Virus record (IMG/VR): IMGVR_UViG_3300031519_004866
Direction: 5' to 3' (one strand)
Origin: a virus
Length of the DNA stretch: 64,000 nt
The notes below the pieces were generated by a model. That model saw nothing but the letters and a program-made list of their open reading frames with translations, had not been told where the DNA came from and ran no database searches. The stretch's first letter is position 1, and every line of letters starts with the position of its first letter. Both the position numbers and the translations under genes were made by a program. This document shows, in pieces, positions 1 through 55,626 of the stretch.

Positions 1-867
1 ACCTTTCTGAAATGCCATTTTTGCAACATGCCCTGCGGTTGCGGTTTGTTCTTCTTCTCTAGCACCAACGGGCATTACCCAAATAGGAAAGTCAACATCT
101 ACTTCACGAAATTGTGCTATAGCTGCCTCCATGTCATCCCACTCACGTTGTAAACTACCAACAACAAACTTTAATTGTCCTTTGCTAGATAATTTACGAT
201 ACTGCTCAACTACTTCGGGTCTAATTGCTTTCTTAGCAAGTTCGCCTGATGTGCTAAACAGTTTAGGTGATACACTAAAGAATAATTCAATTTCTGTTTC
301 TTGTTGCCAGAAGTTAATAAACTCTTGTGTAAGATTTTGTGTACCGTTAGTTTCAAATGTAATACTAGCGGGTAAATTATTTTGTGCTTTAAGCTCTCGC
401 ATAATACCTATAAACGCTTTCTGACTTTGTGGCATCATAGGTTCGCCGCCTGTAACACAGAAGTGTTGCCTCTGTTGCGATACAGGATGTAAGAATAACC
501 CTTCCGGGTTACTCTCTGTTTTTAAGATATCAATAATCTTATGTGCTAATGCCTTAGGAGTTTCTTGCCCCATTAAGTGTTTATATCGTTTAGCCCATGT
601 GTAACTGCTGTCACAACCTTTATCCCAAACAGGTAAGTCTTCTACTTTATCAATTTTAGATAAATCAAAAGTTTCAAACGGAAGTTCGTATGTATCAGGA
701 TTAGTTGGATCTAATTGTCCAAACCCGTTACATTGCAAGTTACATAAAAAGAATCTAATCCAAGCAGTAGGAACACCAGTGTATTGTCCTTCACCTTGAA
801 TACTGTGAAAAATTTCACTGTAGTAATACTTCTTAGTATCTTCGGTAGTTGCGATTGTTTCATTCAT
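1..867 (-). CDS. queE: 7-carboxy-7-deazaguanine synthase (radical SAM), 3' end runs off the window
   Basis: Not in the ORF track; translated by hand: MNETIATTEDTKKYYYSEIFHSIQGEGQYTGVPTAWIRFFLCNLQCNGF...WDKGCDS...TGGEP...ETNGT...SVSPKL. These are QueE motifs with a long insert in the Cys motif. Confidence 0.9.
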   Translation of the reverse strand, partial: MNETIATTEDTKKYYYSEIFHSIQGEGQYTGVPTAWIRFFLCNLQCNGFGQLDPTNPDTYELPFETFDLSKIDKVEDLPVWDKGCDSSYTWAKRYKHLMGQETPKALAHKIIDILKTESNPEGLFLHPVSQQRQHFCVTGGEPMMPQSQKAFIGIMRELKAQNNLPASITFETNGTQNLTQEFINFWQQETEIELFFSVSPKLFSTSGELAKKAIRPEVVEQYRKLSSKGQLKFVVGSLQREWDDMEAAIAQFREVDVDFPIWVMPVGAREEEQTATAGHVAKMAFQKG

Positions 868-873
868 ACTACT

Positions 874-903
874 ATTATACCTTCTTTTCATCGGTGTTGT
901 CAA
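874..903 (-). promoter_or_regulatory. sigma70-type promoter TTGACA-N18-TATAAT, 6 nt before the queE ATG
   Basis: Minus strand reads TTGACA acaccgatgaaaagaagg TATAAT agtagt ATG. Confidence 0.7.
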
Positions 904-1063
904 CCTTTTTCTTTATTGAAAAGGTGCCATTAAGATTGTCATCCCAAATAAGAGTATCACCAAAATCCCATCCCATTTGGCTGAGAAGATCCGGCGGAAA
1001 AGGTAAAATTACCTCTCCTGTCTCCGGGTCTTCTTCTACTTTAACTGTCCATTGCTTAGACAA
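875..1063 (-). CDS. AbrB/MazE-like small DNA-binding protein
   Basis: VILPFPPDLLSQMGWDFGDTLIW fits the AbrB swapped-hairpin pattern. Confidence 0.55.
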   Translation of the reverse strand: MSKQWTVKVEEDPETGEVILPFPPDLLSQMGWDFGDTLIWDDNLNGTFSIKKKVDNTDEKKV

Positions 1064-1262
1064 AATATTTGTCTAACATTTCTAGACGATCGTGTGCAGA
1101 AGCCATTTTATCTAGTTCTTTTTGGATCGTTTCGATAATATCCGAATGTTCTCCAATACCTACAACTTTCTGCATGTATACTTCTACATTTGTTTTGTGT
1201 AGTTCAATTTCAGCTTCAGCGTGTTTACGTGCTGCATTAATCATTTGCTGTCTCAATTCCAT
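1056..1262 (-). CDS. hypothetical protein (helical, 68 aa)
   Basis: ORF with SD-like AAGGA upstream; start trimmed to MELRQQ. Confidence 0.6.
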   Translation of the reverse strand: MELRQQMINAARKHAEAEIELHKTNVEVYMQKVVGIGEHSDIIETIQKELDKMASAHDRLEMLDKYFV

Positions 1263-1275
1263 ACCCTTTCCTTTT

Positions 1276-1650
1276 TTAGTATTGTTGTTTTGACGGAATG
1301 ACGCCTCGAACGCCGCCCTTAGGATCTTCCGTATCACCGTCTCTACGAAAGATTAAATGTACATGCGGATACATAACAGTTTGTCCTGCACTCTCACCTA
1401 CATTTAAACCAATATTGTAACCTGTGATATTAGTCTTATCACTGATTACGTTATCGTACCCCATAGTAACAGCAAAGTTAAAACATTTCATAATGCCTTC
1501 ACTGTCTGCTGTTTTAGGTACAATTAATGTGTGACCTTCAGTAACCGGATACTTGTCACGAAACACTGTAAAATCTCTAGTGTCAATTTCAATGTCATTC
1601 CAAGGAGCACGGCCTTCGCTTTTTGCTAACTCTAATGTATCAGCTTTCAT
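1276..1650 (-). CDS. HIT-family nucleotide hydrolase
   Basis: DKYPVTEGHTLIVPK...NVGESAGQTVMYPHVHLIFRR; first His of the triad appears replaced by Tyr. Confidence 0.85.
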   Translation of the reverse strand: MKADTLELAKSEGRAPWNDIEIDTRDFTVFRDKYPVTEGHTLIVPKTADSEGIMKCFNFAVTMGYDNVISDKTNITGYNIGLNVGESAGQTVMYPHVHLIFRRDGDTEDPKGGVRGVIPSKQQY

Positions 1651-1873
1651 AACGACCTCGTCCAGTTTTTACTTTAAATTCTCTTGGACCCGGTGTAGTA
1701 AATTCCATACCAGCCATTCCGCCGACGTATGTTTTACCATTCCATCGCATGTGAATTTTATTTGTTGCAATATATACTTCAACAAACTCTTTAGATTTAA
1801 AATTGCCAACTTCTGCATCTACAACTTTGTCGTTGTGTGTGCATGTTACTGCGCATTGATCGTCATAACTCAT
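1640..1873 (-). CDS. hypothetical protein
   Basis: ORF whose ATG overlaps the upstream stop (ATGA). Confidence 0.55.
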   Translation of the reverse strand: MSYDDQCAVTCTHNDKVVDAEVGNFKSKEFVEVYIATNKIHMRWNGKTYVGGMAGMEFTTPGPREFKVKTGRGRYES

Positions 1874-2418
1874 GTGTACTCTCCTACATTTTCCCAAGGA
1901 TAAACAAGCCAAACATCTTCTTCAAATTTGTTTATTTCGTGACATGTGTAACTAACAGGAACTGTAGCGTCACTTGCTAGATTATTAGTTAGGGTAGCAA
2001 ACCGAACGTTACTATACCAAACTTTCTCCCATCTCGGATCATCAGGCAAACAACTAGCAGGCCAGTCTTCCTTAATCCAATTGAAAGTAGCACCAGTATC
2101 GTTAATGTCGTCTACAATAAGGATTTTCTTTGCTGTAGTAGGACCACCAATATTTGGATCACTTGCGTATCCGTATGCATCTTCTGCCATCCATAAGTTG
2201 CTTTCGCTTTGACTGTTATCGTCACGTAGACTTACTTTAAGTGCTTCGCAACGTATGCCAGTCATGTTGCTAATAATAGTAGCAGGCACATTTCCGCCTC
2301 GTGTTAGACCTACAATGTAATCAGGCCGCCAACTGTCAGCGTACATCTGATTAACAATGCTTACACACATTTTTTCTACGTCAGCCCAGCTATAATAATG
2401 TTTCTTAATATCACCCAT
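1870..2418 (-). CDS. type I phosphoribosyltransferase (xanthine/guanine PRT-like)
   Basis: IVGLTRGG, PRPP-binding loop ILIVDDINDTGATF, C-terminal WLVYPWE. Confidence 0.85.
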   Translation of the reverse strand: MGDIKKHYYSWADVEKMCVSIVNQMYADSWRPDYIVGLTRGGNVPATIISNMTGIRCEALKVSLRDDNSQSESNLWMAEDAYGYASDPNIGGPTTAKKILIVDDINDTGATFNWIKEDWPASCLPDDPRWEKVWYSNVRFATLTNNLASDATVPVSYTCHEINKFEEDVWLVYPWENVGEYT

Positions 2419-2839
2419 GATTTAAATAATCCTCGTTGTGTATCCATTTACCATCTTTAACAAAACCCCATTCTTGAGCTTTCTTGCCCATATAAAAAAT
2501 GCTCCAGCATGGAATTTCGTTTCCGTCTGCGTCTTTAGCAAGTTCTAACCAATGCAAATCTTTTGCTGTTCTAAAACGTATACTACCAGGCCCACGCCAA
2601 AACTTACCTTCTGAAGTGTGTTCCCAATAGCCACCTTTAATAATTAATGCTCCCCAACTCCACGGATGATCGTGTAGTGTAGGTTCGTCACTTACTAGTA
2701 CTTTGTGCATAGTAATATTAAACGGAAAGTTTTTTCTGTCTTTTAAAAATAGATAGTATCTAATTAGATACGGAATTGTGTTATCTCTATCGTAGATAAT
2801 ACGCTCTCGTCCAATTAGTTTTAAAAACTTAAGAAACAT
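2411..2839 (-). CDS. cupin-fold protein
   Basis: LHDHPW...GGYWEH...DLHWLEL metal-binding pattern. Confidence 0.55.
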   Translation of the reverse strand: MFLKFLKLIGRERIIYDRDNTIPYLIRYYLFLKDRKNFPFNITMHKVLVSDEPTLHDHPWSWGALIIKGGYWEHTSEGKFWRGPGSIRFRTAKDLHWLELAKDADGNEIPCWSIFYMGKKAQEWGFVKDGKWIHNEDYLNHG

Positions 2840-3035
2840 CTGTTAGCCAATCCGTTTTAATATTTTTATATAACTCAACAACTCTGCAATTATATTCATC
2901 TTCGTTAACAGCAAGATCGTTCAGTTTTCTTTTCCACATTCCTTGAACACCTTCATCCAATTGAGGATTAGTGTCGAGTAATGTTTGAATAGATTTTGAT
3001 CTACGCAATTGTACTTGTTCGTTCCACGGTCCCAT
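2829..3035 (-). CDS. hypothetical protein
   Basis: ORF in a tightly packed operon. Confidence 0.5.
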   Translation of the reverse strand: MGPWNEQVQLRRSKSIQTLLDTNPQLDEGVQGMWKRKLNDLAVNEDEYNCRVVELYKNIKTDWLTDVS

Positions 3036-3228
3036 GATTTAGATCCTTCCTGCTTAGTTTTAAACGGTTAATAGTCATTCCGTGCCTCTCAGTCATATCA
3101 ACTAACGGTATTCCTCGAAGATTGTACATAAACGCTTCAGCCGGTGTAAGTATCATACAGTCGTTAGCTGATGTTGGCGGAACAACGGAATAGACTCTTT
3201 TTTTGTGTAAATCTAATTTGTCTTGCAT
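3001..3228 (-). CDS. hypothetical protein
   Basis: ORF in a tightly packed operon. Confidence 0.45.
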   Translation of the reverse strand: MQDKLDLHKKRVYSVVPPTSANDCMILTPAEAFMYNLRGIPLVDMTERHGMTINRLKLSRKDLNHGTVERTSTIA

Positions 3229-3413
3229 AATGGCTTACTGGACGACCTATCGTTCCAGTCATCTTTATTTTGTGAATACTCACGAGTGTGAATTTGACGT
3301 ACTAGTAACCCGTTTATAATTTTATGGATTACTACTTCTTTCATTAGGACCCCGTCATCTAAATTCTCTTCAAGTGCTTTTGCAAATGGTCCGTCTTTAA
3401 CTTCAATTAGCAT
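3213..3413 (-). CDS. hypothetical protein
   Basis: Start trimmed to MLIEVK after SD AGAGGAG. Confidence 0.5.
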   Translation of the reverse strand: MLIEVKDGPFAKALEENLDDGVLMKEVVIHKIINGLLVRQIHTREYSQNKDDWNDRSSSKPLCKTN

Positions 3414-3628
3414 TAAACTATCTCCTCTAATATGCCAAGTGCCTCTGCAATTACAAAGCCTACTCCGGCGATTATAAATGGCGTACCCCAATATTCTAAG
3501 TAGTAGCCTCCGTATATCATTGACACTCCTGCCACAATGCGTACTGCACTTTTAACAAGGCTTACGTAAAAGTGTCCCATGCTTGGGTCTTTTGTTGCTG
3601 GCATAATTATTCTTTCTGGTATTGGCAT
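3413..3628 (-). CDS. small membrane protein (2 TM)
   Basis: Two hydrophobic segments; directly downstream of folE. Confidence 0.6.
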   Translation of the reverse strand: MPIPERIIMPATKDPSMGHFYVSLVKSAVRIVAGVSMIYGGYYLEYWGTPFIIAGVGFVIAEALGILEEIV

Positions 3629-3636
3629 ACTATCTC

Positions 3637-4326
3637 CTATTTTCCACAAGCAAATTCTTGCTGTAGTTTAATGTTATCAAAAAATTCCTTCTTAGTGCCA
3701 GCGTCATCTTTAAACGCACCTTTTAAAACAGTTGTCTGTGTAAGACTGCTATTTGCCATAATGCCTCTGTTCTCACAACACCCGTGTGTTGCTTGGATGT
3801 AAACACCTACGTTAGTAGATCCAGTTGAACTCATAATCTCTCTAGCAATATCATTACATAGTTCTTCTTGTAATGTGCCACGTCTAGCACACCATTGTGC
3901 AATACGTGTATATTTGCTAAGTCCAATTAAAGTTTCTCCAGCAATAATTCCAATATATGCAACACCAGTTACGGGTTGATGATGATGTGAGCAAACACTT
4001 TTAAGCTCACTGCGTACAACTAGCATACCTTCGTATCCGTTATCTATGTGATTAGGAAATGCAGTTGCATTAGGCATAGGATCATATCGACCTGCCATTA
4101 ATTCATTTACATACATTTTTGCTAGGCGTTTACCAGTATCCATACTGTTAGGATCTGTATAACGATCAATTACAAGACCGTCTAATACTGCTTCGAACTT
4201 AGGTGTAAGTTCTTCAATTAATAATTGTTTGTCGCCCTCTTGCAGGACTTCACTAATGTTGTCGCCAGCCCAAAATCTAACGCCTGCGTCTTGTAGTTTT
4301 GTTTTAATTTTTTCACTTATACTCAA
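3637..4326 (-). CDS. folE: GTP cyclohydrolase I
   Basis: SVCSHHHQPVTG, GLSKYTRI, QEEL, HGCCENRG Zn-binding T-fold motifs; TTG start after SD GGAG. Confidence 0.95.
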   Translation of the reverse strand: MSISEKIKTKLQDAGVRFWAGDNISEVLQEGDKQLLIEELTPKFEAVLDGLVIDRYTDPNSMDTGKRLAKMYVNELMAGRYDPMPNATAFPNHIDNGYEGMLVVRSELKSVCSHHHQPVTGVAYIGIIAGETLIGLSKYTRIAQWCARRGTLQEELCNDIAREIMSSTGSTNVGVYIQATHGCCENRGIMANSSLTQTTVLKGAFKDDAGTKKEFFDNIKLQQEFACGK

Positions 4327-4369
4327 TTTTATTCTCCGATGTTTAGGCAGTGGATTGCCAACTTTTATA

Positions 4370-5419
4370 TTATTTTAACACATTTAATAGATCTGAGCAA
4401 CTAAAATATTGCTCATTTAGTACTTGTACCTGTTTATTTAGGCGAGGTAAGTACTTTTTATAATTTTCCATGTAATCTATAATTTGTGCAACCACTTGTT
4501 CTTTGTGTTCTTTGTATGCAGCAAATGACGTTGTCCAATCACTAGGATATTTAAACTCGTCTAATGCCATTTCAGTATAGCTTAAACGGTCCGGAACCAT
4601 AGGAATAGTGTCTACAAGCGCACCCTCATACCAACTAATGCCAAGTGTTTCTTGCAAATTAGCACTGAATACTAGTTTAGCTTCACCTAATAAGTTGTGG
4701 TATTCGTTCTTCGATAGTTGCTTTTCTTGACAAACAACAAATTCATATTGCGGAAGTGCTTCTCTAAGATCTTCAAATATGTCAACTTGCTTCTCAGGAG
4801 CAACACGATGCGGAAACAAAATAAGATCTCGTTTCGGCATACCTTTGTACATTGTTAATGTATTTGCCATATACTCAAATGGCCAACCAGTTCTAATTGC
4901 TTTGTCCATGTCAACACTGTAGTTGTCATTAAACGCTTCTAAAAACATGTCAATGTGAAAGTTACTTGCAAAAAAGTTATGATTATAACATTCATACATT
5001 GACATTTCAGCATGTCTTACCCACGGTTTGTCTCCGATCAGTCTGCCTAAAAAATCAGCAGGGTCATAACTACCAGCATGCCATAAGCCACCAATTCGAA
5101 TGTCCACGCCCAACAGTTCAGCCATGTAGCGCAACTGAATAACAGTTGGGTTCCACGCATCCGTATATAGGAAATAATCTCCATCTTTTACTTCTCCTTT
5201 ACAAAATGCTTCAGCAATAATTTCTAACTGCTTACTTTTGTAAACATTAGTTCCACCGAAGTTGAGGAACGCCCCAGGAGTTGTTGCCTGAGGCGTATCC
5301 CCACCGTTGACTACGGTTACTGTATGGCCATGTCCTCGCAACAGATTTGGAAACTGCGTTTTCCACTGCTTAGTGTAACGTGTTTCTACTGCTTCTAAGT
5401 CAACTAGCCATATGTTCAT
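4370..5419 (-). CDS. GT-B fold glycosyltransferase, candidate DNA-base glycosyltransferase
   Basis: Ex7E motif ETLGISWYE; FPHRVAPEK donor-binding segment; LNFGG and FLYTDAWNP recall NFFGG and YLFTDIRLP of T4 beta-glucosyltransferase. Confidence 0.75.
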   Translation of the reverse strand: MNIWLVDLEAVETRYTKQWKTQFPNLLRGHGHTVTVVNGGDTPQATTPGAFLNFGGTNVYKSKQLEIIAEAFCKGEVKDGDYFLYTDAWNPTVIQLRYMAELLGVDIRIGGLWHAGSYDPADFLGRLIGDKPWVRHAEMSMYECYNHNFFASNFHIDMFLEAFNDNYSVDMDKAIRTGWPFEYMANTLTMYKGMPKRDLILFPHRVAPEKQVDIFEDLREALPQYEFVVCQEKQLSKNEYHNLLGEAKLVFSANLQETLGISWYEGALVDTIPMVPDRLSYTEMALDEFKYPSDWTTSFAAYKEHKEQVVAQIIDYMENYKKYLPRLNKQVQVLNEQYFSCSDLLNVLK

Positions 5420-5620
5420 TTAGTTTCTCCGTTTATTAAATTTCTTTTGGAATGACTTCTTATAGCCATGGCGGTTTTCAAACGCTCTAAAAGCTCTACT
5501 TTCTCGCTTATAAAGATCACGTTCATCAAATTTAAAACCGTTGAATCGACAAAATTCTTTGTACGCTTCGAGATCCGTAAAGATCTTAACCACGTCTGGC
5601 CGATCTGCAAAATAACCCAT
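5420..5620 (-). CDS. hypothetical basic protein
   Basis: ORF with SD AAGGAG. Confidence 0.55.
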   Translation of the reverse strand: MGYFADRPDVVKIFTDLEAYKEFCRFNGFKFDERDLYKRESRAFRAFENRHGYKKSFQKKFNKRRN

Positions 5621-5632
5621 TGTAGGTCTCCT

Positions 5633-6094
5633 TTAATACTTTGCATATTCAATATGGGCACCGTTTTCTCCGTCTTCGGAGACATCGATGTGGACTTCAC
5701 GTCCGGGGTGTTTTGTTGTGATTTGTTCATACAAATCATCTGACATCATTTCACAAGATTTATAATCTACATTAAGTTCACCTTCATACAGTTTCTCAAG
5801 CCAACGCTTGAATTGAATAAACTCAATATCTCTGTCGTTATGTGTTACAGTGATACCTACTCTAAAATGAAAGATGTGTCTGTGGGGATAACCCAAAAAA
5901 CTAACATCGTATTCATCACCTGTTGCAAGACTAGGATCATCTAGTGCCGCAGGATACTTATGGATACCTTCTTTAGTGAAAGTAACCCAAATCATTCGCT
6001 TTGCATTTTGCATAGCATTTTCTTTATCGTTTGCCATATTTTCTTCTTTCATACGTCTTAACATATAGTTGTAATAAGATTCACGTTGTTGCAT
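5633..6094 (-). CDS. QueD-like T-fold protein, DpdL-like
   Basis: LGYPHRHIF matches LxxxHRHxF rather than the CxxxHGH of QueD; also IEF...SCE...VSEDGENG T-fold features. Confidence 0.7.
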   Translation of the reverse strand: MQQRESYYNYMLRRMKEENMANDKENAMQNAKRMIWVTFTKEGIHKYPAALDDPSLATGDEYDVSFLGYPHRHIFHFRVGITVTHNDRDIEFIQFKRWLEKLYEGELNVDYKSCEMMSDDLYEQITTKHPGREVHIDVSEDGENGAHIEYAKY

Positions 6095-6121
6095 TTAGTA
6101 TAACACCTTTCTTGATTGAAG

Positions 6122-6652
6122 TCAATCAATAAGTTTGTCTTTGTCATATTCACTCCAATGAGTAAATTTAGTATGATCCATAAGGTCACGAACCCTATGA
6201 CACCAAACACCTGGATTAGATGCCTTAAAGCCTTTGTCATCAATTTTTAGCATAGCGTTGTAACCAAGTTGATCAACATACGGCAATGGTACACGGATCT
6301 GCGGAATAAAGTAGATATTTTCTACTAATCCACTGTCCATAAAGTCTTCTACAGCAGCAATTGGAATATCTAAGCTACAAAAAATTTCGTCATTAACGAA
6401 CACTTCGATCATGTCTTCCCACTCTTCCCAGTCTGCAGCTACCCACGACTTTTGTGGATCAAAGCTATGATTAGCACCAAAAAAGATATGTTCACAGCCA
6501 TATGTGCTAAACATGTCACGAATGTCAGATACATCATGAATACCGGTAACGAACAATGTTTTCTTTCCAAATGCAGGAGTTTTTTCAACTTCTACACCTA
6601 CAAAAAATTTTGCTGTACTTGATACGTGACCATCTTCGTATGTACGTTCCAT
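6122..6652 (-). CDS. hypothetical protein in the deazaguanine cluster
   Basis: 176-aa ORF between dpdA and the DpdL-like gene; motifs GVEVEKT, HIFFGANHS, DDKGFKASNPGVW. Confidence 0.7.
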   Translation of the reverse strand: MERTYEDGHVSSTAKFFVGVEVEKTPAFGKKTLFVTGIHDVSDIRDMFSTYGCEHIFFGANHSFDPQKSWVAADWEEWEDMIEVFVNDEIFCSLDIPIAAVEDFMDSGLVENIYFIPQIRVPLPYVDQLGYNAMLKIDDKGFKASNPGVWCHRVRDLMDHTKFTHWSEYDKDKLID

Positions 6653-6653
6653 A

Positions 6654-8201
6654 TTATTCTCCTGTTAACTCAGTTTCTAATTTAGCTAGTTCGTCATCTT
6701 CTCTGTCATCAGTCCACGGAACAATTTCGTCACCTGCATCGTCAACTTCAACAAACAGCGAGTTAGCAATGTTTGTAACACCACCACGTAGTCTAGAACC
6801 TTCACAGTTCTTAAGGAACGCATCAGCTTCTTTAATCATTGCAAATGCTGCTTCTTTTGTAGGCTGTTCAAATAGTTCTTCAACAAAACGATCGAAGTAA
6901 AGAATATTACGTGGTACCCAGTCAGAGTACTCATCACTCTTATCTGCTTCTTTAACTTTTCTCCAATGTCTCCAGTCTGGACGTTCTTTTGCTAATTCAA
7001 TATCTGTTAAGTTGTTAGCACGTTGTACAGCAACAATATGTTGATACACGTTGTGTGACATCATTAGTGCATAACCAAAGCTATCCCAACTTGTTTTACC
7101 TTCTTTACCAATCTTGTTAAGCATACCTGGTGCATAATGACAAATGTCTGCAACACTTAAACGCCTACCAATTTCACTTTCAAACGGAAACGGAATGTCA
7201 TGTCTGCCAGCAAGTGCTTTATTATCCATTGCTTTGTCCATAATAACTGACCAACGCTTTGAAGTGTGTTGACTGTTAGTGTAAACAAGACCATGTGCAG
7301 TTGCAATAAACGGTGATGCACAATCAAAACTTACTGTAAAGTTAGGATTAATATGTTTACGTACTTGTCTTTGAATACTAGTTAAGTAACATGACCAATC
7401 AAGTTGTGCAGTACCTAAGAAGTGCATCCAGTCTTTACCTTCTAGCATACCGTCAAATTTCATTGTCATAAGTCTGCGTAGTGTAATAGGCATCTTGCAC
7501 ATATTAGCACCACCCATTGCCCAGCCTTCACAAGCCTTGTCACCCCAAATAGCAGGATCACTAAACTCTTTAACACCTTCGTACCACTTTTCAGCAGTGT
7601 CCCAGTCTGAGCCTTGTAGTACATTTAAAAACTTAGTTACGCCTAGTCTACGCTCTAACCAATACTTGTTATTAAAACGTGTTTTATCTAAGCAGTCTTG
7701 AAAGTCTTTAAGTCCTGTTTTAGGAGCATGAATATGATCACATGCCCAAGTCGGAACATCAAGTAGCATTGACCAATCTGCTGTAAGCTCTAGCCAATTA
7801 AGAATGTCATCTCTAGTCTTGTTTGCAGCAGGACCATCAAAGTTTAACCAATCAAACTTAAGAACACCTTTACCAACCTGATATCCACCCGAGTCACCTA
7901 AAATCATTGTTTTACCACGATCTCTATCTTGTACCATAGCATCTTGTACCATAGTCTTTTCAAGATTCAATTGTGCGTGACCTGCTGAATACAAACCATA
8001 CTTGTATGTAAAGTATCCTTGTTCTTCGTTTAAGAAGTTCATGCCTTCAATTCCGCGGTCAAAGCCCGCAGGAATTCTTTCTTTTGGAATAAATTCACCT
8101 AGTCGCTGTTTAGCAACGTAGGTACTATAGAAAGAACTAATAGCTGGCAAATACACAGCGTAGTCTTTCTGTAATGGTGATAAGTTGACTGGTTCTTTCA
8201 T
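6654..8201 (-). CDS. dpdA: TGT-like DNA 7-deazaguanine transglycosylase (DpdA/DpdA2-like)
   Basis: GDSGGYQ, LDVP, NVLQG, GWAMGG, HFLG and SFDCASP are TGT/DpdA barrel motifs; context of folE, queE and DNA polymerase. Confidence 0.8.
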   Translation of the reverse strand: MKEPVNLSPLQKDYAVYLPAISSFYSTYVAKQRLGEFIPKERIPAGFDRGIEGMNFLNEEQGYFTYKYGLYSAGHAQLNLEKTMVQDAMVQDRDRGKTMILGDSGGYQVGKGVLKFDWLNFDGPAANKTRDDILNWLELTADWSMLLDVPTWACDHIHAPKTGLKDFQDCLDKTRFNNKYWLERRLGVTKFLNVLQGSDWDTAEKWYEGVKEFSDPAIWGDKACEGWAMGGANMCKMPITLRRLMTMKFDGMLEGKDWMHFLGTAQLDWSCYLTSIQRQVRKHINPNFTVSFDCASPFIATAHGLVYTNSQHTSKRWSVIMDKAMDNKALAGRHDIPFPFESEIGRRLSVADICHYAPGMLNKIGKEGKTSWDSFGYALMMSHNVYQHIVAVQRANNLTDIELAKERPDWRHWRKVKEADKSDEYSDWVPRNILYFDRFVEELFEQPTKEAAFAMIKEADAFLKNCEGSRLRGGVTNIANSLFVEVDDAGDEIVPWTDDREDDELAKLETELTGE

Positions 8202-8209
8202 AATATTAT

Positions 8210-8947
8210 TTAGGCCGCCTGTGCTGGAATGATATATTTGTATGTTGCTAAACCACTGTCTAATTCGATCTGGATAGCACCTTCGTTACTAAGACTCATC
8301 TTAGTGTTGTTTACATCTGCAATTTTAAGAATTGCTAAGATACTTGCAACAGGCCAAGTCCAACCACGATCCAATGTACCTATAGTGTCAGTAGCAAACA
8401 CAAACTCGCCACCATGCGAACCTGCATCACCAAAGATAAACTTCAAATTGCCGTCCTCAGTTTTAGCTAAGAATGTTGGATGCTCACTATTAGCACCTGC
8501 TTGGAAGTTAAAACGTTGCACACCAGCAAGTGATGGAACAACTTCTACATCCCACTTAACACCGCGGAACTTAACAGTTTTCATCTTCTCATTAATAATT
8601 TCCATAAGCATAAACTTATAGTCGTTTTTAAAATCGCCTGTTGCGTTTTCAAATTTAATTCCTGTTGGAATAGTTTGGTCGTTACGCACACCAGTTGTTA
8701 CACTAATCTTAGCGTCAGTTTTATATTCACTACCATCTAGCAAATACTTTAACTTTTGAAGCTGTGGCATACCAAACGTGCCAAGCATGTCTGGATAAGG
8801 ATTGTGCGTCTTTGCTTCCATAATAACTGATCTATCATCAGCCATAGAAAACATTGTAGTTTCACTTTCTTCACCAGATACCTTGACAGTTGTCAAGAAT
8901 CCCAAGTTCTGTGTGTGATCTACGATATCTTTTAGTATGTCTTTCAT
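8210..8947 (-). CDS. DNA polymerase sliding clamp (gp45/PCNA-like)
   Basis: 245 aa, adjacent to polB; beta-alpha clamp pattern ending ATYKYIIPAQ. Confidence 0.7.
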   Translation of the reverse strand: MKDILKDIVDHTQNLGFLTTVKVSGEESETTMFSMADDRSVIMEAKTHNPYPDMLGTFGMPQLQKLKYLLDGSEYKTDAKISVTTGVRNDQTIPTGIKFENATGDFKNDYKFMLMEIINEKMKTVKFRGVKWDVEVVPSLAGVQRFNFQAGANSEHPTFLAKTEDGNLKFIFGDAGSHGGEFVFATDTIGTLDRGWTWPVASILAILKIADVNNTKMSLSNEGAIQIELDSGLATYKYIIPAQAA

Positions 8948-9020: not shown

Positions 9021-11690
9021 CTACTCAAAGTCAAACAAGCTATTAAAGTTATTATCACTTCTAGTAGATTTAATATCCCAATCCAATACTCCAATAAGGT
9101 TGCCAAGTTTTTCGTCAATGACTGCATTTTCCATAGCCTCGCCATCAAATGGCAGTTCTTTAAACCATTGCGGTATTCTTAGTTCGTCTACAGGATATGC
9201 AATACTTGTATAGCCCATAGGATTCTGTTTAACTTTACAAACAATAACTTTAGCACCGTCAGTGATAGTAATAGAATACTTGTCATCATTCATACGCTTT
9301 AGCGTGTTCCAGTTAATACTTGCTCGAACATGTCCGGGCATGTTAGCTTTACCTTGCTTCTTTTCTTTAGCTTGGTATTCAGTAACTTTGTTTGCACGTT
9401 TAGGTGATCCTTTCTCCCAACCAGGTCTTGCTTTAAATTCTGTTCTAAATTCAGTAATGTAATCTAGTACATTTTGTTGTTCGGCACCTGCAAGTACACG
9501 AGTCAACACTTCATTTAAAAATTCCTGAATAATAACAGGAGTATCCGAACGTTTAAGATCTAAGCCCATTGCTTTAATCTTTCCGTCTTTGCCGTCTACA
9601 TCTGTACGTTTGCCTTCAATATCGTAATACAATACAGCATAACGCTTTTTAGTAATAAACAGACCTTTGGTTGCAACAATTTCTCTAGCTGCCGCAATAA
9701 CATCTGAACGACTCTTTGGACAATGGAATGCATCCATCATAAACTTAGGAAACGTTGTATTGCAGTTGTCGCCTATTGTGTCATACAAGTTCATAACACT
9801 TTCACGATCCCACGGAATATTACCTGCATCTATCTCATCTTTAAGTGTGCTATATGCACTAAAGTATGTAGAGTCAGTATCACCATATACAATTGACTTG
9901 CCAGTGTGATCATACTCGCCAGTGATAATTTCGTTAATCTTTGCAGCCATATGTTTAACAATAGCTCTGCCACTTAGTGTTGTTGATTGTCCAATACGGT
10001 TATCAAAGAATCTACAACCTGGATTAAGAATAGCACCATATAAACTGTTAAGCAAAATCTTTTTAACTAACTGCCTTTTAGCCCAGTATTCTTCTTCAAT
10101 TGGATTATTTGCAGAAATAGCATCACGCATCTTGCCTTGCATTTCTTTACGTTCTTTATACCAACGTTTTAGTAGTCCAGGAATGATACCTTCTTTTTCG
10201 TGTGTAAAGATAGTACCGTTAGCACTAAGCATCCATGGCTGGTTACTTTCGTAAATTAGATCGTATACCTGAGCAGCACTAAGAGTGTCTTCACCGCCGC
10301 CTTCTTCCCAATCAATAGTAAGTTGTCTACCAACTTCTTTAGCCATTACAGCTTCGTATTCTACAGAACCAAACTGACCTTCCCAAGCACTAGCAAAACT
10401 TTTACCTTTAGCCATCTCAGCCTCAATACGTGCTTTAGTACCATCTTGACGTAGTTGACCAACAATAGTTTCTGGACCCATGTTTAACGCACGAATCACA
10501 CTAGGATATAGTGAGTTCAAGTCAACACTACCAATCCACTCGTGAATACCTTTTTTAGGATATGCTACATAAGCACCAGCTGCTGGCTCGCTGCCTGGCT
10601 CTCTGCGAATTCTGTTTGGAACAATAAAGCCACGTCTGTGTGCTTCGTTAATAATGCCTTGTTCTGTAACAGCAACAGCACCCATAGTTGTTTGAATAAG
10701 AACTGTGTTTTCGTGTGCAATAGTATTTGCAAGATCAATAAACTTCAGTTTCTTATCTAACTTGTCTAGTAGTGCAGTATCTTGAATGTTATATTCAATA
10801 AACGTTCTAAAATTGTTGTTGTATAGTGCATCAAGTGAACCATCATAAACAGTTTTGTTCTCACCGATCTCTAACTCACCAATAGCATCTAGTCGATATG
10901 TATGGCGTTCTTCATAATTATATTTTCTATATAGTTCTAATGAGTCTACATGCACTCGTCCAATTAAATCATAAGTTACAGATGTTTTACCAAACTTCTC
11001 ATACTCACGCTTTTTAGGATATTGATTCCAAAGACACAACCGTTTTGTATCTTCTTTGCTTAATGTTTTAGTAATACGATTAACTGTGTACGGAATATCA
11101 AAGCCTTCGCTGTTCCATCCACTTAGTACATCAGCTTCTTGAATTACATCAAGAAATGCATCAAGCATTTCACTTTCTTTCTTAAACAGCATTACATTAG
11201 GAATGCCTTCGATAGCTTTCTCTGCTTCTTCCATGCTTAGTGTCTTAGGTGGAATTGCAAAACACACCATTGTTTCCATCCACTGCAAATACACAGAAAC
11301 AGATGTAATTGGCATAAACGCATCTTCTGGTGAAGCGTATCCACGCTCGGGATCAAAGTCAACCTCAATATCAAAAAACGCAACGTTTAGTTTAGGAGCG
11401 TCTTGATTGAGATAGTTATCTTCAAGCATTCTGTAAATTGGATTAATATCGCTTTCAAACAGTTTTTTGTTGCTATGGATAGCAAGTTCTTTGCGAAGCT
11501 CTTTGATGTTTTTACAAGTTACCCTTGATAGCGGTTGTCCATATATACTCTGGAACTTACCTCTAGGGTCTGCGTAATAAAAAATATGTCTTGGGTTGTA
11601 TTCTCGGTAATGTCTATTACCTTTTGCATCACGTTCAACAACGTTAATAACGTCCTGATCGCGATTATAGAAAGCGTCTACGTAACTCAT
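9021..11690 (-). CDS. family B DNA polymerase (T4 gp43-like)
   Basis: Exo FFDIEVD, WNSEGFD, YNIQD; Pol DLNSLYPS, KILLNSLYG, YGDTDS; C-terminal clamp-binding-like NSLFDFE. Confidence 0.97.
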   Translation of the reverse strand: MSYVDAFYNRDQDVINVVERDAKGNRHYREYNPRHIFYYADPRGKFQSIYGQPLSRVTCKNIKELRKELAIHSNKKLFESDINPIYRMLEDNYLNQDAPKLNVAFFDIEVDFDPERGYASPEDAFMPITSVSVYLQWMETMVCFAIPPKTLSMEEAEKAIEGIPNVMLFKKESEMLDAFLDVIQEADVLSGWNSEGFDIPYTVNRITKTLSKEDTKRLCLWNQYPKKREYEKFGKTSVTYDLIGRVHVDSLELYRKYNYEERHTYRLDAIGELEIGENKTVYDGSLDALYNNNFRTFIEYNIQDTALLDKLDKKLKFIDLANTIAHENTVLIQTTMGAVAVTEQGIINEAHRRGFIVPNRIRREPGSEPAAGAYVAYPKKGIHEWIGSVDLNSLYPSVIRALNMGPETIVGQLRQDGTKARIEAEMAKGKSFASAWEGQFGSVEYEAVMAKEVGRQLTIDWEEGGGEDTLSAAQVYDLIYESNQPWMLSANGTIFTHEKEGIIPGLLKRWYKERKEMQGKMRDAISANNPIEEEYWAKRQLVKKILLNSLYGAILNPGCRFFDNRIGQSTTLSGRAIVKHMAAKINEIITGEYDHTGKSIVYGDTDSTYFSAYSTLKDEIDAGNIPWDRESVMNLYDTIGDNCNTTFPKFMMDAFHCPKSRSDVIAAAREIVATKGLFITKKRYAVLYYDIEGKRTDVDGKDGKIKAMGLDLKRSDTPVIIQEFLNEVLTRVLAGAEQQNVLDYITEFRTEFKARPGWEKGSPKRANKVTEYQAKEKKQGKANMPGHVRASINWNTLKRMNDDKYSITITDGAKVIVCKVKQNPMGYTSIAYPVDELRIPQWFKELPFDGEAMENAVIDEKLGNLIGVLDWDIKSTRSDNNFNSLFDFE

Positions 11691-37366: not shown

Positions 37367-39319
37367 CTATACCAAGTTAACCCAAGCACTATCTTCATAG
37401 CCTTGAAATTTATTATCAGTGGAATTGTAAATAACCATTCCATTTACCGCAGCTAGTGCATTACGCTGTGTGGTAGTTAAACTGCTAAACTGTACAAAGC
37501 CTGTGCTAACTATGTTTCCTGCGTTAATTACTGGAGCAGTTAATTCGTTTTGTACACTAACATCACTGCTAAACACTGTCATTGGTGTAACAGTAATTGC
37601 ACTACTATCTGCACTGTCAATTAAGTTTGTAAATATGTTTCCAGTGTGTGTTCCAATAACATCGCCGTATATTTTATTTTCGACCGAGTCAATAATCTTA
37701 GTAGAGTCATCACCAAATACACTACCTTTTATATCGCCTGTATGATAACCTGTTGAGTTACCTGTTAAGTTACCTACAACATTACCTGTTACATCACCTG
37801 TTAATGAAGCAATCACTTTGTTATCAACTGCATCAATCATGAGCGTTGAATCGTCTGCAAATAAACTTCCTGTTACATCGCCTGTAATGCTACCAACAAA
37901 TTGATTTGAATATACAGTATTAAATGGACTTGAAACTGATCCAATTGTAGTACTAAGCCCTGATGGTAATATTGATGTAAGAACTATATCATTTCCAGAA
38001 GTTGCAATAGGAACACTATCAATGTATAACGGTCCTTGCGTATCTACTGGACCAACAATTTTCGACAACACCCCATCAATAAGTAATGCACTGTCATCAC
38101 CAAATACACTACCGTTAATATCAATTTCTTTGTTAACAGTAAATATTAACTTGTCATTGATAGTATCAGTAGTAATAGTAATTCCATACCCATTTTCAAA
38201 CGTTAAAATATCAGCAGTATTATCTGCTGCAATGTTTGTTTGTCCATCGACTGCAATTTGTTGGAATGTTGGTACAGCTGGCGCCGAGTTTGAAACAGTT
38301 GCAACACCTGTTGCACCATCTGTTGAAACTGTAATACCAAAACCTTGTTGTACTTCTAGTACACCTGTGTTAGTAAACTGTACTGCGCCAGTTGTTGTAC
38401 TAACTGTAACACCTTCTCCCGGTGTACGTCCTGTTGCTCTAGCTGGAATGTTAGTTGTATTTTGTGCAGATGTAACACCTGTGTTAGTAATAGTTACATT
38501 GCCTGTTGCAGAACTAACTGAAATACCTGTACTAGCAATAGATTGTGTTACACCAGCATTAATAAATGTAATGCTGTCTGCATCACTACCTGCAACTAGT
38601 TGAACTCCCGTTCCACCGTAAAACGATAGTGTATCGTTAGTGTGATCAGCTTCAACAATGTCGCCATCGTCTAAGTTAATGTATCTAAAATATCTTTTTT
38701 CAGGATCAATAATTAAATCGCCTGCAATTGTTGAACCAAAAGGTAAATCAACTTTTCCTGATTCTCCTTTAATACGAGCTGTTCCTAAATATAATCCGTT
38801 ATCTTCTTGTCCAGCTACTTGTAATGTTTCAGCAATGTGTGCTTGTTTCCATTTGTGTGTAGCATCGCCAAATACATAAGTTGCATCAGTTCCTGGCTTA
38901 ATTGAAGTTGTTAATGCTTCAAGGTTAAGAGCACTAAACTCTAACAACGGTTGCGCTAATCCACTACCGGTATATGCGCCAAATCCTGTGCCGTCGGTTG
39001 GAGTAGATATTCCTGCATCGCTAAACAATCCAAACGCGATATTTGAAGCAACATCAACAAAAAATGTTTGTCCATTAAGTTGAGTCATACCAGCAGCATT
39101 TGTAATTGTTACACGCTGCCCGTCAACTAATCCGTGTGCTGCTGAAGTTGTTACTATAACTGGACTTGCTTGAGTAGCAGAAATAATAGACTTTTGCTCT
39201 CCCCCTGCAAGTGTTGCACCAATGGTTACAAAGTTTGCATTAACTTCATCTAATGCTTTTCTAAAGCTATCCCAAACTAGTGGAGGATTACCAGGTTGTA
39301 TGTTTGAATTATACGCCAT
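37367..39319 (-). CDS. tail fibre protein
   Basis: G/T/S/V-rich; FCCH-like beta module; repeated GSVFGDDSxxLID and GDVTG motifs. Confidence 0.75.
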   Translation of the reverse strand: MAYNSNIQPGNPPLVWDSFRKALDEVNANFVTIGATLAGGEQKSIISATQASPVIVTTSAAHGLVDGQRVTITNAAGMTQLNGQTFFVDVASNIAFGLFSDAGISTPTDGTGFGAYTGSGLAQPLLEFSALNLEALTTSIKPGTDATYVFGDATHKWKQAHIAETLQVAGQEDNGLYLGTARIKGESGKVDLPFGSTIAGDLIIDPEKRYFRYINLDDGDIVEADHTNDTLSFYGGTGVQLVAGSDADSITFINAGVTQSIASTGISVSSATGNVTITNTGVTSAQNTTNIPARATGRTPGEGVTVSTTTGAVQFTNTGVLEVQQGFGITVSTDGATGVATVSNSAPAVPTFQQIAVDGQTNIAADNTADILTFENGYGITITTDTINDKLIFTVNKEIDINGSVFGDDSALLIDGVLSKIVGPVDTQGPLYIDSVPIATSGNDIVLTSILPSGLSTTIGSVSSPFNTVYSNQFVGSITGDVTGSLFADDSTLMIDAVDNKVIASLTGDVTGNVVGNLTGNSTGYHTGDIKGSVFGDDSTKIIDSVENKIYGDVIGTHTGNIFTNLIDSADSSAITVTPMTVFSSDVSVQNELTAPVINAGNIVSTGFVQFSSLTTTQRNALAAVNGMVIYNSTDNKFQGYEDSAWVNLV

Positions 39320-42300
39320 TATGTTCTCCCTACCGCTACTTCAATGGTTCCAATATGATCGCTATCATATGTTTCTAATGCTTTACCAATGATAGTTCCT
39401 GCTCTAACATCACCATCGGCTGCAATTCCTACTCCGTGTATTGCTGCTGTCACTATCAAATCGCCTTTGTTAATTTTACCAACTACTCTAACTGGAATTC
39501 TGCCTTGTAATCCAACAAGGTTTTTAAGTCCAGGACATGCAGTATACATAACATATGCAGCTCTATCTGAAACAACGCCTGCTACTCTTGTATCAGCATA
39601 TCTATTAGATGTAGTAACTTCCTTGTCACCCCCAAATACTAACACTGTACCGACTTCGTATTCCTTGTCACCCTCGTAGTATTCAGCAAGGTCAGCAGCA
39701 TAAGTTGCTTCAAACCTTGATTCGCTTGGTGTTGTTCCTGTTAATGACCAACGTCCTGTAATTGTACCTGCTGTAGTATTACCACCAGTAGTTAACGCAG
39801 TAGTAAGTACTTGTGATGTTTCAATTGGAGCAAGTGAAACACCGCTTTGTGTTCTAAATCTGTGGTAATCGTTATCATAAAAGTTACGTTTATCAGATGC
39901 TAACGAACCTGTTTGTAAGTATAACCCACCACTACCGCTTGATCCTGTATAAAGTCTTGTGTAACTAGCAGTACCAGATGTACCATGCGCCATTGTTGTG
40001 TTGCCGCTGACTGTAAACGAATTTGTAGCGTTCCATATTCTTGCACTAGCATCTGCGTTACCGTCTCTTTGTATCAATGTACTTGAAGTTGAATTTGATG
40101 TTGCTTCAATTATGCTATAATCAACATCAGCAGTATTACTAGATCCACTAATTCTTCTTAAGAATCCTGTACTACTATATTGTGTTTTCTTAATAGCACC
40201 ACCGTCATCAACAATAGTAGTAAATGTTACATCGGCTGGTGTTGCAGGAGCAAGTGTGTTATTACCAATTACAGACTTAGCAGCAACATTTGTTAGTTTT
40301 GATTTTGGAATAGTACTGTTTGTAATAGTTACCCAACCGTCAGTAACAGTAAAGTATGTATTATCAAGTGCTACAATGCCTTTTTCTGCTTGTGTAATGC
40401 CAGTTGCATTTGCTCTTGTTTGGGCATTGGCCATAGCTAACTTACTTTGAGCAATCGCTGCTGATGCATTAATATCATTGTTTAAAATAACACCTGGTTG
40501 TATCTGTGCATCAATTGTACCAAGTGTTGAGTCTATGTCTAATGTAATATCACCAACTACTGTACTGTTAATAGCATCGTTACCGTTGCCAGTAAACACT
40601 AAAAGATCATTTGCTTTAAGGTTAGTAACTGTAAATTCTTGTAAGTTAGTAAATGTTAAACTTCTAAGGTTAACACCGTCTGTTGGTTGTGTAGGATCTG
40701 CAATATCAATAATCTTTTGATTACCTAGCGACATTGGAGACTTCATAGACAACGACCCGTCTAGAGCCATAAAGCCACCACTAATTGATGGTATTAAGTT
40801 AGCTTGTGTAATAGGAGCACCACTATGCGATGTACCTAGTCGTCTTTCCATATAAAGTCTTGTTGCGTTCTCTGTTGGAACAGTATCAACAGCGTTATCA
40901 GTAAATGCTGAGTCTGTTGAAAATTCACTAACTGGAACACCACGTTTAAATCCAATACCGTCCAAGTTACTCAAAGCAATAGCTGCTGAGAATGTAACCT
41001 GACCTGTACCTTGGTCAACTCTAAAGTATGGTCCAACGTTGAAGTTACCAAATTGGTCAGTGGTTACATAGAACACACGTCCCACTGTACGTTCATCAGT
41101 TTCAGTGTCAGGGTTAAATGCGTTAACCGGTGGTCCATAAATTTCTGTTGGATAGTTTGTATCAGCATATGAGCCAGTACCAATCTCAAGTAAATCGTGT
41201 GATGTAACACGAGTCAATGAAATCCTAATTGTTAGCTTACCTCTAGCACCAAGCGACCCTCTACGCACCGCTGATTTAATAGAGTATGTTGCTTCAAACT
41301 GTGTTAAGCTATCTACTAATGGACGGTCAAGTGTAAGTCTGCCCCATGGATTACCAGTTACAGTTTCATCTTCGTAGGTGTCAATTACATATATTTCACC
41401 GTTCCATACAAATGTACTACCTGCTACTCTTGATCTTTCTTGCGGTGCAACAGCAACAACTGCAAAACTACTATCTCCTACTGCCCCTGTTGGAACATGA
41501 TATGTATGTGTACCTGTTTGTGTGCCAGTTGTGTCAACTTGAACAGCGCCTGCTAGTGTTGGATATCCAACACTTACTGTAAATGTGTTTGAATCTAAAA
41601 CTGTGTGTACAAAGTAATGGTTACTTGTGTTTAACCCTGTTGGCAATGCGCCTGTGGTGTTAAGAGTAATTGGGTCACCTTGACTAAATCCGTGGCTGGA
41701 TTTTGTAATCACTCCTGGACTTGCAACCGACACTGTAAATGTCTGTGTTGTAGCAGCTTTTGCTTCACCTGGTTTGTAAACAGTTAAGTCAATGTAGTTA
41801 TAGTTTTCTCTAAGTGTTGTTCTAGTAAGACCTTCAATAATCGCACTATGCGTACCAGTACCAGTATTAGTAATTTCAACTGGCCCAGCTCCGTTAATAA
41901 TATTTGATATTTCAAAAGTTGTTGCAGTTAGATTTTCTTCTCTAATCCAATACGTTTCACCTGCAGTGATTCCTGCTGGTAATGTATTACTTGAACTAAA
42001 ACTTAGTCTATAGTTGTATAGTAGTTTGTGTGGAACAACTACTTTTAAATTAGGAGTTGCATCTGATAGTGTTACTGCACTACCGCCTGCAGATGTACTT
42101 AAAACAACGCTAGTATATGCTGGTACGTCGATAACATGGTATGTTGTACCGCCAGTTAATCCACCACCAGAGCCGTCTGGAACAATTGTATCTCCAACAA
42201 CTAATCCGTGATTCTGACTAAATGTTGCTACATTTCCGCTTGATGCAGTTGTTGATATAGTTGCTTTAAATGTAAACACACCAGGATTAGTAGCAGTAGC

Positions 42301-55525: not shown

Positions 55526-55570
55526 ACTATTTTTCCTTTTAAAATGCGGCATTCGTTTGCTGCATGTTCT

Positions 55571-55599
55571 ATTATATAAGCCTAGACTGTGTTTGTCAA
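55571..55599 (-). promoter_or_regulatory. sigma70-type promoter TTGACA-N17-TATAAT, back-to-back with a plus-strand TAAATA at 55613
   Basis: Perfect consensus hexamers. Confidence 0.7.
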
Positions 55600-55626
55600 G
55601 CATTAAAGTGGTTAAATACGTATATA

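Follow-up and report, generated by a model that had tools for sequence, protein, structure and literature searches.

A DpdL-linked glycosyltransferase in a phage 7-deazaguanine DNA-modification cluster suggests a possible sugar-bearing deazaguanine in DNA

The IMG/VR virus record IMGVR_UViG_3300031519_004866, from an uncultured marine giant phage and analyzed here as one stretch of 64,000 nucleotides (the window), opens with a gene cluster in which enzymes for making 7-deazaguanine bases and placing them in DNA surround a 349-amino-acid (aa) glycosyltransferase (GT). The first 12 kb form a single, tightly packed minus-strand run whose gene ends abut or overlap. Along this strand, genes for a polymerase, a clamp, a DpdA-like protein, a 176-aa protein, DpdL, a 66-aa open reading frame (ORF), the GT, and FolE are followed by four small ORFs, a cupin, a phosphoribosyltransferase (PRTase), a 90-aa ORF, a HIT protein, a 93-aa ORF, and QueE (Table 1). 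The stop codon of the 66-aa ORF lies directly before the start codon of the GT. An earlier note on this DNA had read the region as an operon next to the clamp and polymerase genes, and every gene that it named is present in its place on the minus strand; the small gene of that description is best read as the 66-aa ORF.

Table 1. Genes of the modification cluster, its replication neighbors, and other features of the window
Feature	Position	Strand	Evidence
QueE, 7-carboxy-7-deazaguanine (CDG) synthase	1-903	-	phrog_2076, E 2.7e-45; NCBIfam QueE models match partially
HIT-family nucleotide hydrolase/transferase	1276-1650	-	PF01230, E 2.8e-9
Gpt-like purine PRTase	1870-2418	-	PF00156, E 2e-9; NCBIfam xanthine PRTase, E 3e-12, below cut-off
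Cupin, small metal-binding, 142 aa	2411-2839	-	phrog_4786, E 6e-32
FolE, GTP cyclohydrolase I	3637-4326	-	PF01227, E 2.9e-37; phrog_2197
GT-B glycosyltransferase, GT4-like, retaining type (predicted), 349 aa	4370-5419	-	AlphaFold2 (AF2) model, motifs, profile
66-aa basic ORF (isoelectric point, pI, 9.9)	5420-5620	-	Between DpdL and GT; conserved by tblastn in most of 80 related contigs
DpdL, QueD paralogue, T-fold, 153 aa	5633-6094	-	phrog_17812, E 2e-32; LGYPHRHIF
176-aa acidic protein	6122-6652	-	Kept across the marine lineage; also in ACP17, weakly in L094
DpdA-like DNA-guanine transglycosylase (predicted), tRNA-guanine transglycosylase (TGT) fold, 515 aa	6654-8201	-	Fold comparison and motifs
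Sliding-clamp homologue	8210-8947	-	32% identity to annotated Phosso clamp, 37% to PA5oct neighbor
Family-B DNA polymerase	9021-11690	-	phrog_262, E 4.5e-201; flanks the module
2218-aa ORF	39319-45975	-	
QueD, 6-carboxytetrahydropterin (CPH4) synthase	51163-51645	-	PF01242, 47 bits, above cut-off; 45% identity to phiST QueD
Radical S-adenosylmethionine (SAM) genes	55564-56607, 57209-58291, 58288-59694, 59691-60701	+	
Radical SAM genes	60679-61602, 61586-62914	-	
PP-loop protein, 251 aa	62841-63596	-	phrog_1550 (QueC-like), E 4e-6

FolE, the PRTase, the HIT protein, and QueE were recognized by Pfam, PHROGs, or NCBIfam, the C-terminus of QueE being cut off at the window edge. The step absent from the cluster itself is that of canonical QueD, whose gene is sited 45 kb away; counting it, the window encodes every step of the CDG pathway. 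QueC (PF06508) found no match in five related marine records, all of them fragments, and none was present in the complete genomes of PA5oct, ACP17, Phosso, and BUCT-ZZ01, phages with related clusters that are described below; in BUDD, a further such phage, there is a sub-threshold match only, far from the cluster. The window itself encodes a PP-loop protein with the motif SGGADS and a C-terminal CxxCxxC, which resembles a QueC-like PHROG (Table 1) and has neither a Pfam QueC match nor a counterpart that we could find in PA5oct, ACP17, BUDD, Phosso, or BUCT-ZZ01. This protein may belong to the adjoining radical SAM pathway rather than to the deazaguanine module.

The 153-aa T-fold protein, which the earlier note had singled out for its LxxxHRHxF motif, fits the signature by which DpdL is defined: LxxxHRHxF in place of the CxxxHGH of QueD (Cui, Hutinet et al., NAR 2023, PMC10516641), with no catalytic Cys at the motif position of QueD and 6-pyruvoyl-tetrahydropterin synthase (PTPS) (PMC10516641). 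In an alignment of DpdL from 18 lineages, H45, H71, H73, an SCE motif, and E140 are invariant, and the DpdL proteins of phages phiST and ACP17 align with the invariant His residues. The proposed role of DpdL is to decarboxylate CDG, yielding 7-deazaguanine; in phiST DNA this base has taken the place of G entirely and occurs as the deoxynucleoside (dDG) (PMC10516641). The step was not reconstituted with phiST or ACP17 genes in Escherichia coli—ACP17 dpdL plus dpdA gave no dDG—and other enzymes are possibly needed, according to the authors of that work (PMC10516641).

We placed the 515-aa DpdA-like protein by fold comparison: Pfam, PHROG, and NCBIfam gave no match, and sequence and profile searches of the PDB gave nothing either. 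For its AlphaFold model (pLDDT 80), the top 50 Foldseek matches in the PDB are all TGTs (best E 5e-8). The motif DSGGYQ (residues 103–108), from which the earlier note had recognized a dpdA-like gene, and a second motif, FDCASP (292–297), are invariant in 19 homologues down to 40% identity; we take the two to correspond to the TGT motifs DSGGFQ and FDCV.P, which hold the catalytic aspartates. Compared by hhalign with DpdA3 of BUDD, ACP17, and phiST, the protein has both motifs in register (E 1.8e-4, probability 49%), and it is 41.6% identical to PA5oct EST35_0316, which is of the same type. We therefore regard it, on modeled fold and motifs, as a DpdA-type enzyme with the TGT fold that cannot be firmly assigned to any of the subfamilies DpdA1–4. 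With FolE, QueD, QueE, DpdL, and this TGT-fold gene all found, the cluster is a 7-deazaguanine DNA-modification module, as had been proposed.

The remaining enzyme of the cluster core, the GT, found no Pfam match at E 0.01 and no other library match. Its AF2 model, made from an alignment of 52 diverse members whose mean column identity is only 33%, reaches a pLDDT of 96 and a pTM of 0.92 and has the GT-B architecture of two Rossmann-like domains with a cleft between them. In VIA comparison, the model best resembles retaining enzymes of the GT4/GT5 families, among them sucrose-phosphate synthase (6kih; Z 25.7, root-mean-square deviation 3.3 over 318 residues), BshA (Z 25.2), and glycogen synthase, PglA, and PimA (Z 21.3–22.6), and the best Foldseek E value is 2e-11. 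Matches also include a cyanobacterial tetrahydrobiopterin (BH4) glucosyltransferase (5zer, Z 20.3), a score that dozens of other GT4 enzymes equal or exceed, and two enzymes that act on DNA, the HY126 5-hydroxycytosine GT (9iqz, Z 19.2) and T4 alpha-glucosyltransferase (AGT) bound to DNA (1y6f, Z 18.5). Because the BH4, AGT, and HY126 enzymes all appear in this list, the fold alone does not name the acceptor. On the donor side, the EX7E motif that had been read in the sequence is present as E257-x7-E265; across the 52 sequences E265 is invariant, while E257, R205, and K210 are conserved to 90% or more, and the family profile aligns this EX7E/R/K region to a solved GT chain (8xsg, E 5e-5). Invariant positions of the N-terminal domain are Q64, D87, W89, H114, D119, D122, and E138. 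The homologue in BUDD is recognized by PF00534 (45.7 bits vs a cut-off of 26.4), and several metagenome members have faint precomputed matches. The model and the motifs together indicate that the embedded gene encodes a genuine GT-B glycosyltransferase with intact donor-side motifs.

The family to which this enzyme belongs is large, comprising at least 8000 clusters at 90% identity by single-sequence search, many from marine surveys including Tara, and 1127 representatives at 50% identity by exhaustive search. The nearest Atlas clusters are 95–100% viral, and judged from these sequences the family appears to be essentially phage-specific. Its members are acidic (median pI 5.5 vs 9.05 for T4 beta-glucosyltransferase, BGT), and no fused forms were seen among proteins of 612–2000 aa, which is weak evidence. 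Kinship with BGT, which the earlier note had suspected from the segments LNFGG and FLYTDAWNP, did not hold: the segments exist in BGT and are paired by BLASTP at E 0.94 only, the GT family profile gives BGT an hhalign probability of 0.3%, which is the level of chance, and tblastn of the GT against the phage collection returned no T-even match. In the structure comparison with the two T4 enzymes that the note had called for, AGT is matched as given above and BGT is not among the 50 best (Foldseek PDB and VIA wide search). From the sequence comparisons, we rejected a relationship to BGT (GT63) as a chance resemblance.

Of the genes around it, DpdL rather than DpdA is the one most tightly linked to the GT. 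Wherever flanking sequence suffices, in about 15 lineages, a GT gene has DpdL no more than 3 kb away and usually next to it, so that presence of the GT implies DpdL. The linkage is seen in the window, PA5oct, Phosso, ACP17, BUDD, BUCT-ZZ01, L087, L089, L092/93, L094/95, L098, L099, L100, and L101, lineages that differ in polymerase type and DpdA subfamily. The numbered ones are metagenome contigs encoding GT members 28–35% identical to that of the window, on which DpdL was found with our own hidden Markov model (HMM; E 1e-15 to 1e-41) and FolE, QueE, and PTPS wherever the contig was long enough. Gene order varies among the named phages: DpdA, GT, DpdL and, further along, PRTase and QueE in PA5oct; the 176-aa homologue, DpdA3, GT, DpdL, QueE in ACP17; GT, DpdA, DpdL, QueE in BUDD; DpdL, GT and, further along, FolE in Phosso; and QueE, PRTase and, further along, FolE, a GT-like gene, DpdA3, DpdL, GT in the cyanophage BUCT-ZZ01. 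The GT of BUCT-ZZ01 was missed by single-sequence tblastn and is matched by the family HMM at E 2e-40; that of PA5oct is EST35_0317. Closer to the window, the whole block is kept in 80 IMG/VR contigs of its broad lineage while DpdA identity drops to 37%. The earlier note had held that its idea would fail if GT homologues occurred mostly without dpdA; across the phage contigs, the readable contexts are all FolE/QueE/DpdL/DpdA clusters.

A family-like GT (profile E 2e-31) also occurs in the PhiXhv-12 group (L096, a Xanthomonas phage, 5669–8903), beside GlmS and an LmbE-type deacetylase; single-sequence tblastn detected no DpdL there, and the locus may be a different sugar-based modification system.

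The converse of the linkage does not hold, as DpdL also occurs without the GT. A profile search with a positive control found no GT in five complete genomes of DpdL phages: phiST, RHph_I1_18, Ahp1_CNU-2021, Bakedbeans, and D479. In the DpdL tree, which is short and, apart from the sister relationship of Ahp1 and PA5oct (support 95/95), weakly supported, these GT-less proteins are scattered among the GT-linked ones in a way that needs at least 3–4 changes. This interspersion led us to view the GT as an optional tailoring step downstream of DpdL. Virion DNA of phiST carries plain dDG (PMC10516641), so that this GT-less phage amounts to a natural experiment for the role of the GT.

Genes of sugar chemistry lie near the module in several lineages. 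In L100, a dTDP-sugar isomerase and a UDP-N-acetylglucosamine (GlcNAc) 2-epimerase adjoin FolE-DpdL-GT; in L089, a mannose-6-phosphate-isomerase-type cupin and an FkbM methyltransferase directly follow the GT; L099 has a xylose-isomerase-like TIM barrel, PA5oct a 172-aa fragment of a short-chain dehydrogenase/reductase (SDR) epimerase, and BUCT-ZZ01 the second, weaker GT-like gene. We argue from these neighbors for real glycosyl transfer with lineage-specific sugars. No thymidylate-synthase-like hydroxymethylase was found in ACP17 and BUDD, which makes hydroxymethyl-pyrimidine acceptors unlikely in these two phages; together with the absence of QueC from PA5oct, ACP17, Phosso, and BUCT-ZZ01, this leaves no other hypermodified base evident as an acceptor.

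In our proposal, the cluster makes up a 7-deazaguanine DNA-modification module that lacks QueC and has its own tailoring GT, and virion DNA would carry glycosylated 7-deazaguanine; we give this proposal an even chance. By homology, FolE, QueD, and QueE would convert GTP to CDG, which DpdL would convert to 7-deazaguanine, as taken from the literature; DpdA, assigned by homology, would then exchange guanine in DNA for this base. The GT would add a sugar from a nucleotide sugar to the DpdL product, the donor presumably being host-made in the window phage and made with phage-encoded sugar-nucleotide enzymes in some relatives. It would thereby be an optional add-on to the DpdL pathway, much as glucosylation is to 5-hydroxymethylcytosine (hmC) in T-even phages. 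Transfer may take the form of N2- or C7-glycosylation, and its target may be DNA or else the free base, which a DpdA with a widened pocket would then insert. We lean modestly toward action on DNA after insertion, since all known phage DNA sugars are added in this way, and keep glycosylation of the free base in view because of the adjacency to DpdL and the precedent of the huimycin enzyme HuiG. The Gpt-like PRTase would most simply salvage the guanine released by DpdA back to GTP; alternatively, it might phosphoribosylate a deazapurine in the manner of TubE in tubercidin pathways. The modification as a whole may have an anti-restriction role. The sole indication, an indirect one, that virion DNA holds a 7-deazaguanine derivative comes from PA5oct, whose DNA is restriction-resistant; the authors of that work deduce a modified G without identifying it (PMC12191111).

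Several points weigh against this proposal. Plain 7-deazaguanine has no obvious hydroxyl to accept a sugar, and the linkage would have to run through N2, O6, or a carbon atom. Decarboxylation of CDG by DpdL is itself a proposal, unproven biochemically, and the QueC-like PP-loop protein leaves room for another deazaguanine species that the window phage may make. For the modeled acceptor domain no match is diagnostic: the BH4 enzyme, whose acceptor is a pterin, scores as well as the DNA GTs. The acidity of the GT also counts against a DNA substrate, if weakly, as the DNA-acting DpdA-like family is equally acidic. Finally, the family-like GT of PhiXhv-12 sits in a GlmS/deacetylase context with no DpdL detected. 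A predicted complex of GT and DpdA, scoring 0.01 and thus below the mark, weighs neither way.

Some of these observations would fit a soluble product. The GT might glycosylate a small molecule, either a free deazapurine or a pterin, that never enters DNA, leaving plain dDG there; such a glycoside could serve for storage or export, act as an inhibitor, or represent a by-product made harmless. Formally, a pterin glycoside would call for just such genes: FolE, a PTPS-like T-fold protein, and a GT. The GT is acidic, and it is linked more tightly to DpdL, which is presumed to work on the free base, than to DpdA; HuiG, of the GT4 type, acts on a free 7-deazapurine, and the BH4 enzyme 5zer is matched at Z 20.3. 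Dozens of other GT4 enzymes match at least as well, however, and DpdL lacks the catalytic Cys of the QueD/PTPS motif. QueE is always in the module, DpdA is present wherever the flank suffices, and the GT directly adjoins DpdA in PA5oct, ACP17, and BUDD; the module is sited among replication genes, and a soluble glycoside would have no evident use to a lytic phage. We consider this explanation unlikely.

Comparably unlikely, in our estimation, is action of the GT on something other than deazaguanine, whether a different base in DNA, a protein of phage or host, or a glycan of the host envelope, with its location reflecting no more than shared early or middle expression. The acceptors of GT4-like enzymes are indeed very diverse, no acceptor-side signature could be read from the family, and the PhiXhv-12 locus offers an example of another context. 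Common timing is nonetheless a poor explanation for co-location with DpdL in about 15 lineages whose gene content is otherwise unrelated, the family was not seen outside phages, and ACP17 and BUDD have no hydroxymethylase-type enzyme. Very improbable, by our reckoning, is a GT-fold protein that transfers no sugar and serves as a structural or allosteric partner of DpdL or DpdA, with dDG as the final base. It would account for the strict adjacency to DpdL and for the failure of ACP17 dpdL and dpdA, without the intervening GT, to give dDG in E. coli; phiST, however, makes dDG without any GT, the donor-side residues have been conserved in a family that otherwise varies widely, and sugar-nucleotide enzymes co-occur with the module.

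Our HMM for the PRTase matches EST35_0321 of PA5oct (E 7e-14) and the Gpt protein of BUCT-ZZ01 (E 5e-31), both within clusters. The HIT gene is kept in most of the 80 related contigs and was not found in distant clusters, which confines it to the marine lineage. The cupin, too, is a marine-lineage accessory gene found in no distant cluster; its H56, H58, and H96 are invariant, and it has a weak profile match to the Mn-cupin TM1459 (E 0.011). On comparison it is unrelated to the sugar-isomerase cupin of L100, and a role in making a hydroxyl acceptor for the GT was rejected for want of cross-lineage support, as the gene is absent from distant clusters. The 176-aa protein has no match in any library (Pfam, PHROG, NCBIfam, and PDB sequence or profile search), and in the Atlas it brought up nothing beyond a model of low confidence and uncharacterized viral proteins. 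Its own HMM finds the ACP17 ORF upstream of DpdA3 (E 9e-27) and a protein of L094 (E 9e-5); the 177-aa "glycosylase" at the same position in Phosso proved unrelated. The 66-aa ORF has no family match.

At the level of the region, megablast against phage records gave no match, and a scan for promoters and terminators showed no excess over shuffled sequences. A perfect sigma-70 consensus (TTGACA, 18 nt, TATAAT; 12/12) lies at 903–874 on the minus strand, overlapping the listed TTG start of queE; its sequence suggests a host-type early promoter, and because of it the queE start is probably further downstream than 903. Identification of the clamp as a homologue is by annotation and position, with no Pfam match. 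Elsewhere in the window, six radical SAM genes stand in a row over 55564–62914 on both strands, an unusually dense island for a phage, and two of the six have an N-terminal SPASM domain. A 2218-aa ORF has neighbors of 650 and 824 aa on its two sides, neither with a PHROG match; the products are probably large proteins of a jumbo phage, either part of the virion or injected.

DpdL genes of other phages have neighbors of their own. In the Vibrio phage Bakedbeans (L103, 5221–6372), a 383-aa protein has DpdL as its C-terminal domain and a 255-aa N-terminal part with no Pfam match, a natural fusion that could point to a DpdL partner in GT-less phages. In Ahp1 (L102, 6489–7939) and D479 (L104, 6692–8094), DpdL is followed by a protein of about 285 aa and a deoxynucleoside monophosphate (dNMP) kinase, and in phiST (L086, 7362–7859) by a kinase-like ATPase and MazG; these kinase neighbors hint at a nucleotide-level route for dDG in the GT-less phages. 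At the end of the DpdL-GT deazaguanine cluster of L099 (7546–8520) is a ParB_N-domain protein, which to us recalls the ParB-like DpdB partner of bacterial DpdA.

To our knowledge, sugars on DNA bases have been described only for pyrimidines (glucosyl- and arabinosyl-hmC, glycosylated 5-hydroxycytosine, and derivatives of 5-hydroxymethyluracil), and none of the eight known deazaguanine bases of DNA bears a sugar. If it exists, glycosylated deazaguanine would be a new class of DNA hypermodification. More specifically, we place slightly below even the chance that this is the first glycosylated purine-type base in any DNA, bearing a hexose, an N-acetylhexosamine (HexNAc), or a lineage-specific deoxy or methylated sugar, added by a phage-only GT4-like family paired with DpdL, and widespread in the ocean and in the PA5oct group. 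A full-text literature search, with most subscription journals outside its reach, found no paper on glycosylated deazaguanine in DNA; a 2026 review treats deazaguanine in jumbo phages only as a prediction, and 2026 work on glycosylated DNA bases concerns 5-hydroxycytosine. New here are the DpdL-centered linkage, the GT-less controls, the co-travelling sugar genes, BUCT-ZZ01 as a further cultured carrier, the dismissal of kinship with BGT, and the caution raised by the QueC-like protein. Carriers of the GT family include abundant marine giant phages, a cyanophage, phages of plant pathogens, and the PA5oct group, which is used against Pseudomonas aeruginosa; the modification, if real, would bear on susceptibility to restriction and to type IV and END nucleases, on sequencing bias in viromes, on the design of phage therapy, and on enzyme tools for labelling DNA. 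A role of the GT may also explain the failed reconstitution with ACP17 DpdL and DpdA in E. coli. Cultured phages exist both with the GT (PA5oct, ACP17, the Xanthomonas phages BUDD and X1, Burkholderia phage BCSR5, Sinorhizobium phage Phosso, and Synechococcus phage BUCT-ZZ01) and without it, and phiST DNA provides a natural all-dDG substrate.

Among known systems, the closest is the dDG system of phiST (FolE, QueD, QueE, DpdL, and DpdA3; PMC10516641), with which the window shares a QueC-less CDG pathway, a DpdL with LxxxHRHxF, a divergent TGT-fold DpdA, and a position beside replication genes. It differs in that phiST has no GT-family gene and makes plain dDG, whereas the window has a GT4-like enzyme locked to DpdL; in that DpdA is 259 aa in phiST and 515 aa and very divergent in the window (hhalign 49% to DpdA3); and in the addition of the Gpt-like PRTase, the HIT protein, and the cupin. 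T4 AGT and BGT and the HY126 GT are likewise phage GT-B enzymes that transfer sugar from a UDP-sugar to a non-canonical DNA base as an optional anti-restriction layer; AGT and the HY126 enzyme share the GT4-like fold with the window GT, to which BGT has no sequence relation. These enzymes act on hydroxyls of modified pyrimidines, whereas the acceptor predicted for the window GT is a purine analogue with no hydroxyl, with DNA as a candidate substrate. Sugars on 7-deazaguanine-type bases are known outside DNA. HuiG of Kutzneria albida, a GT4-type enzyme of the huimycin pathway, attaches GlcNAc to a free 7-deazapurine through its 2-amino group (PMC7439116); like the window GT, with which we compare it by GT4 fold class, it is encoded in a FolE/QueD/QueE cluster and sugars a base of the 7-deazaguanine type, but its substrate is free O-methylated preQ0 and its setting an actinomycete antibiotic pathway with QueC and without DpdA. 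The vertebrate enzymes QTMAN (GTDC1) and QTGAL, which glycosylate queuosine in tRNA, resemble the proposed system in that a 7-deazaguanine derivative receives its sugar after a TGT has inserted it into nucleic acid, and differ from it in that the acceptor is a hydroxyl of the cyclopentenediol side chain of queuosine and the substrate is tRNA, not DNA.

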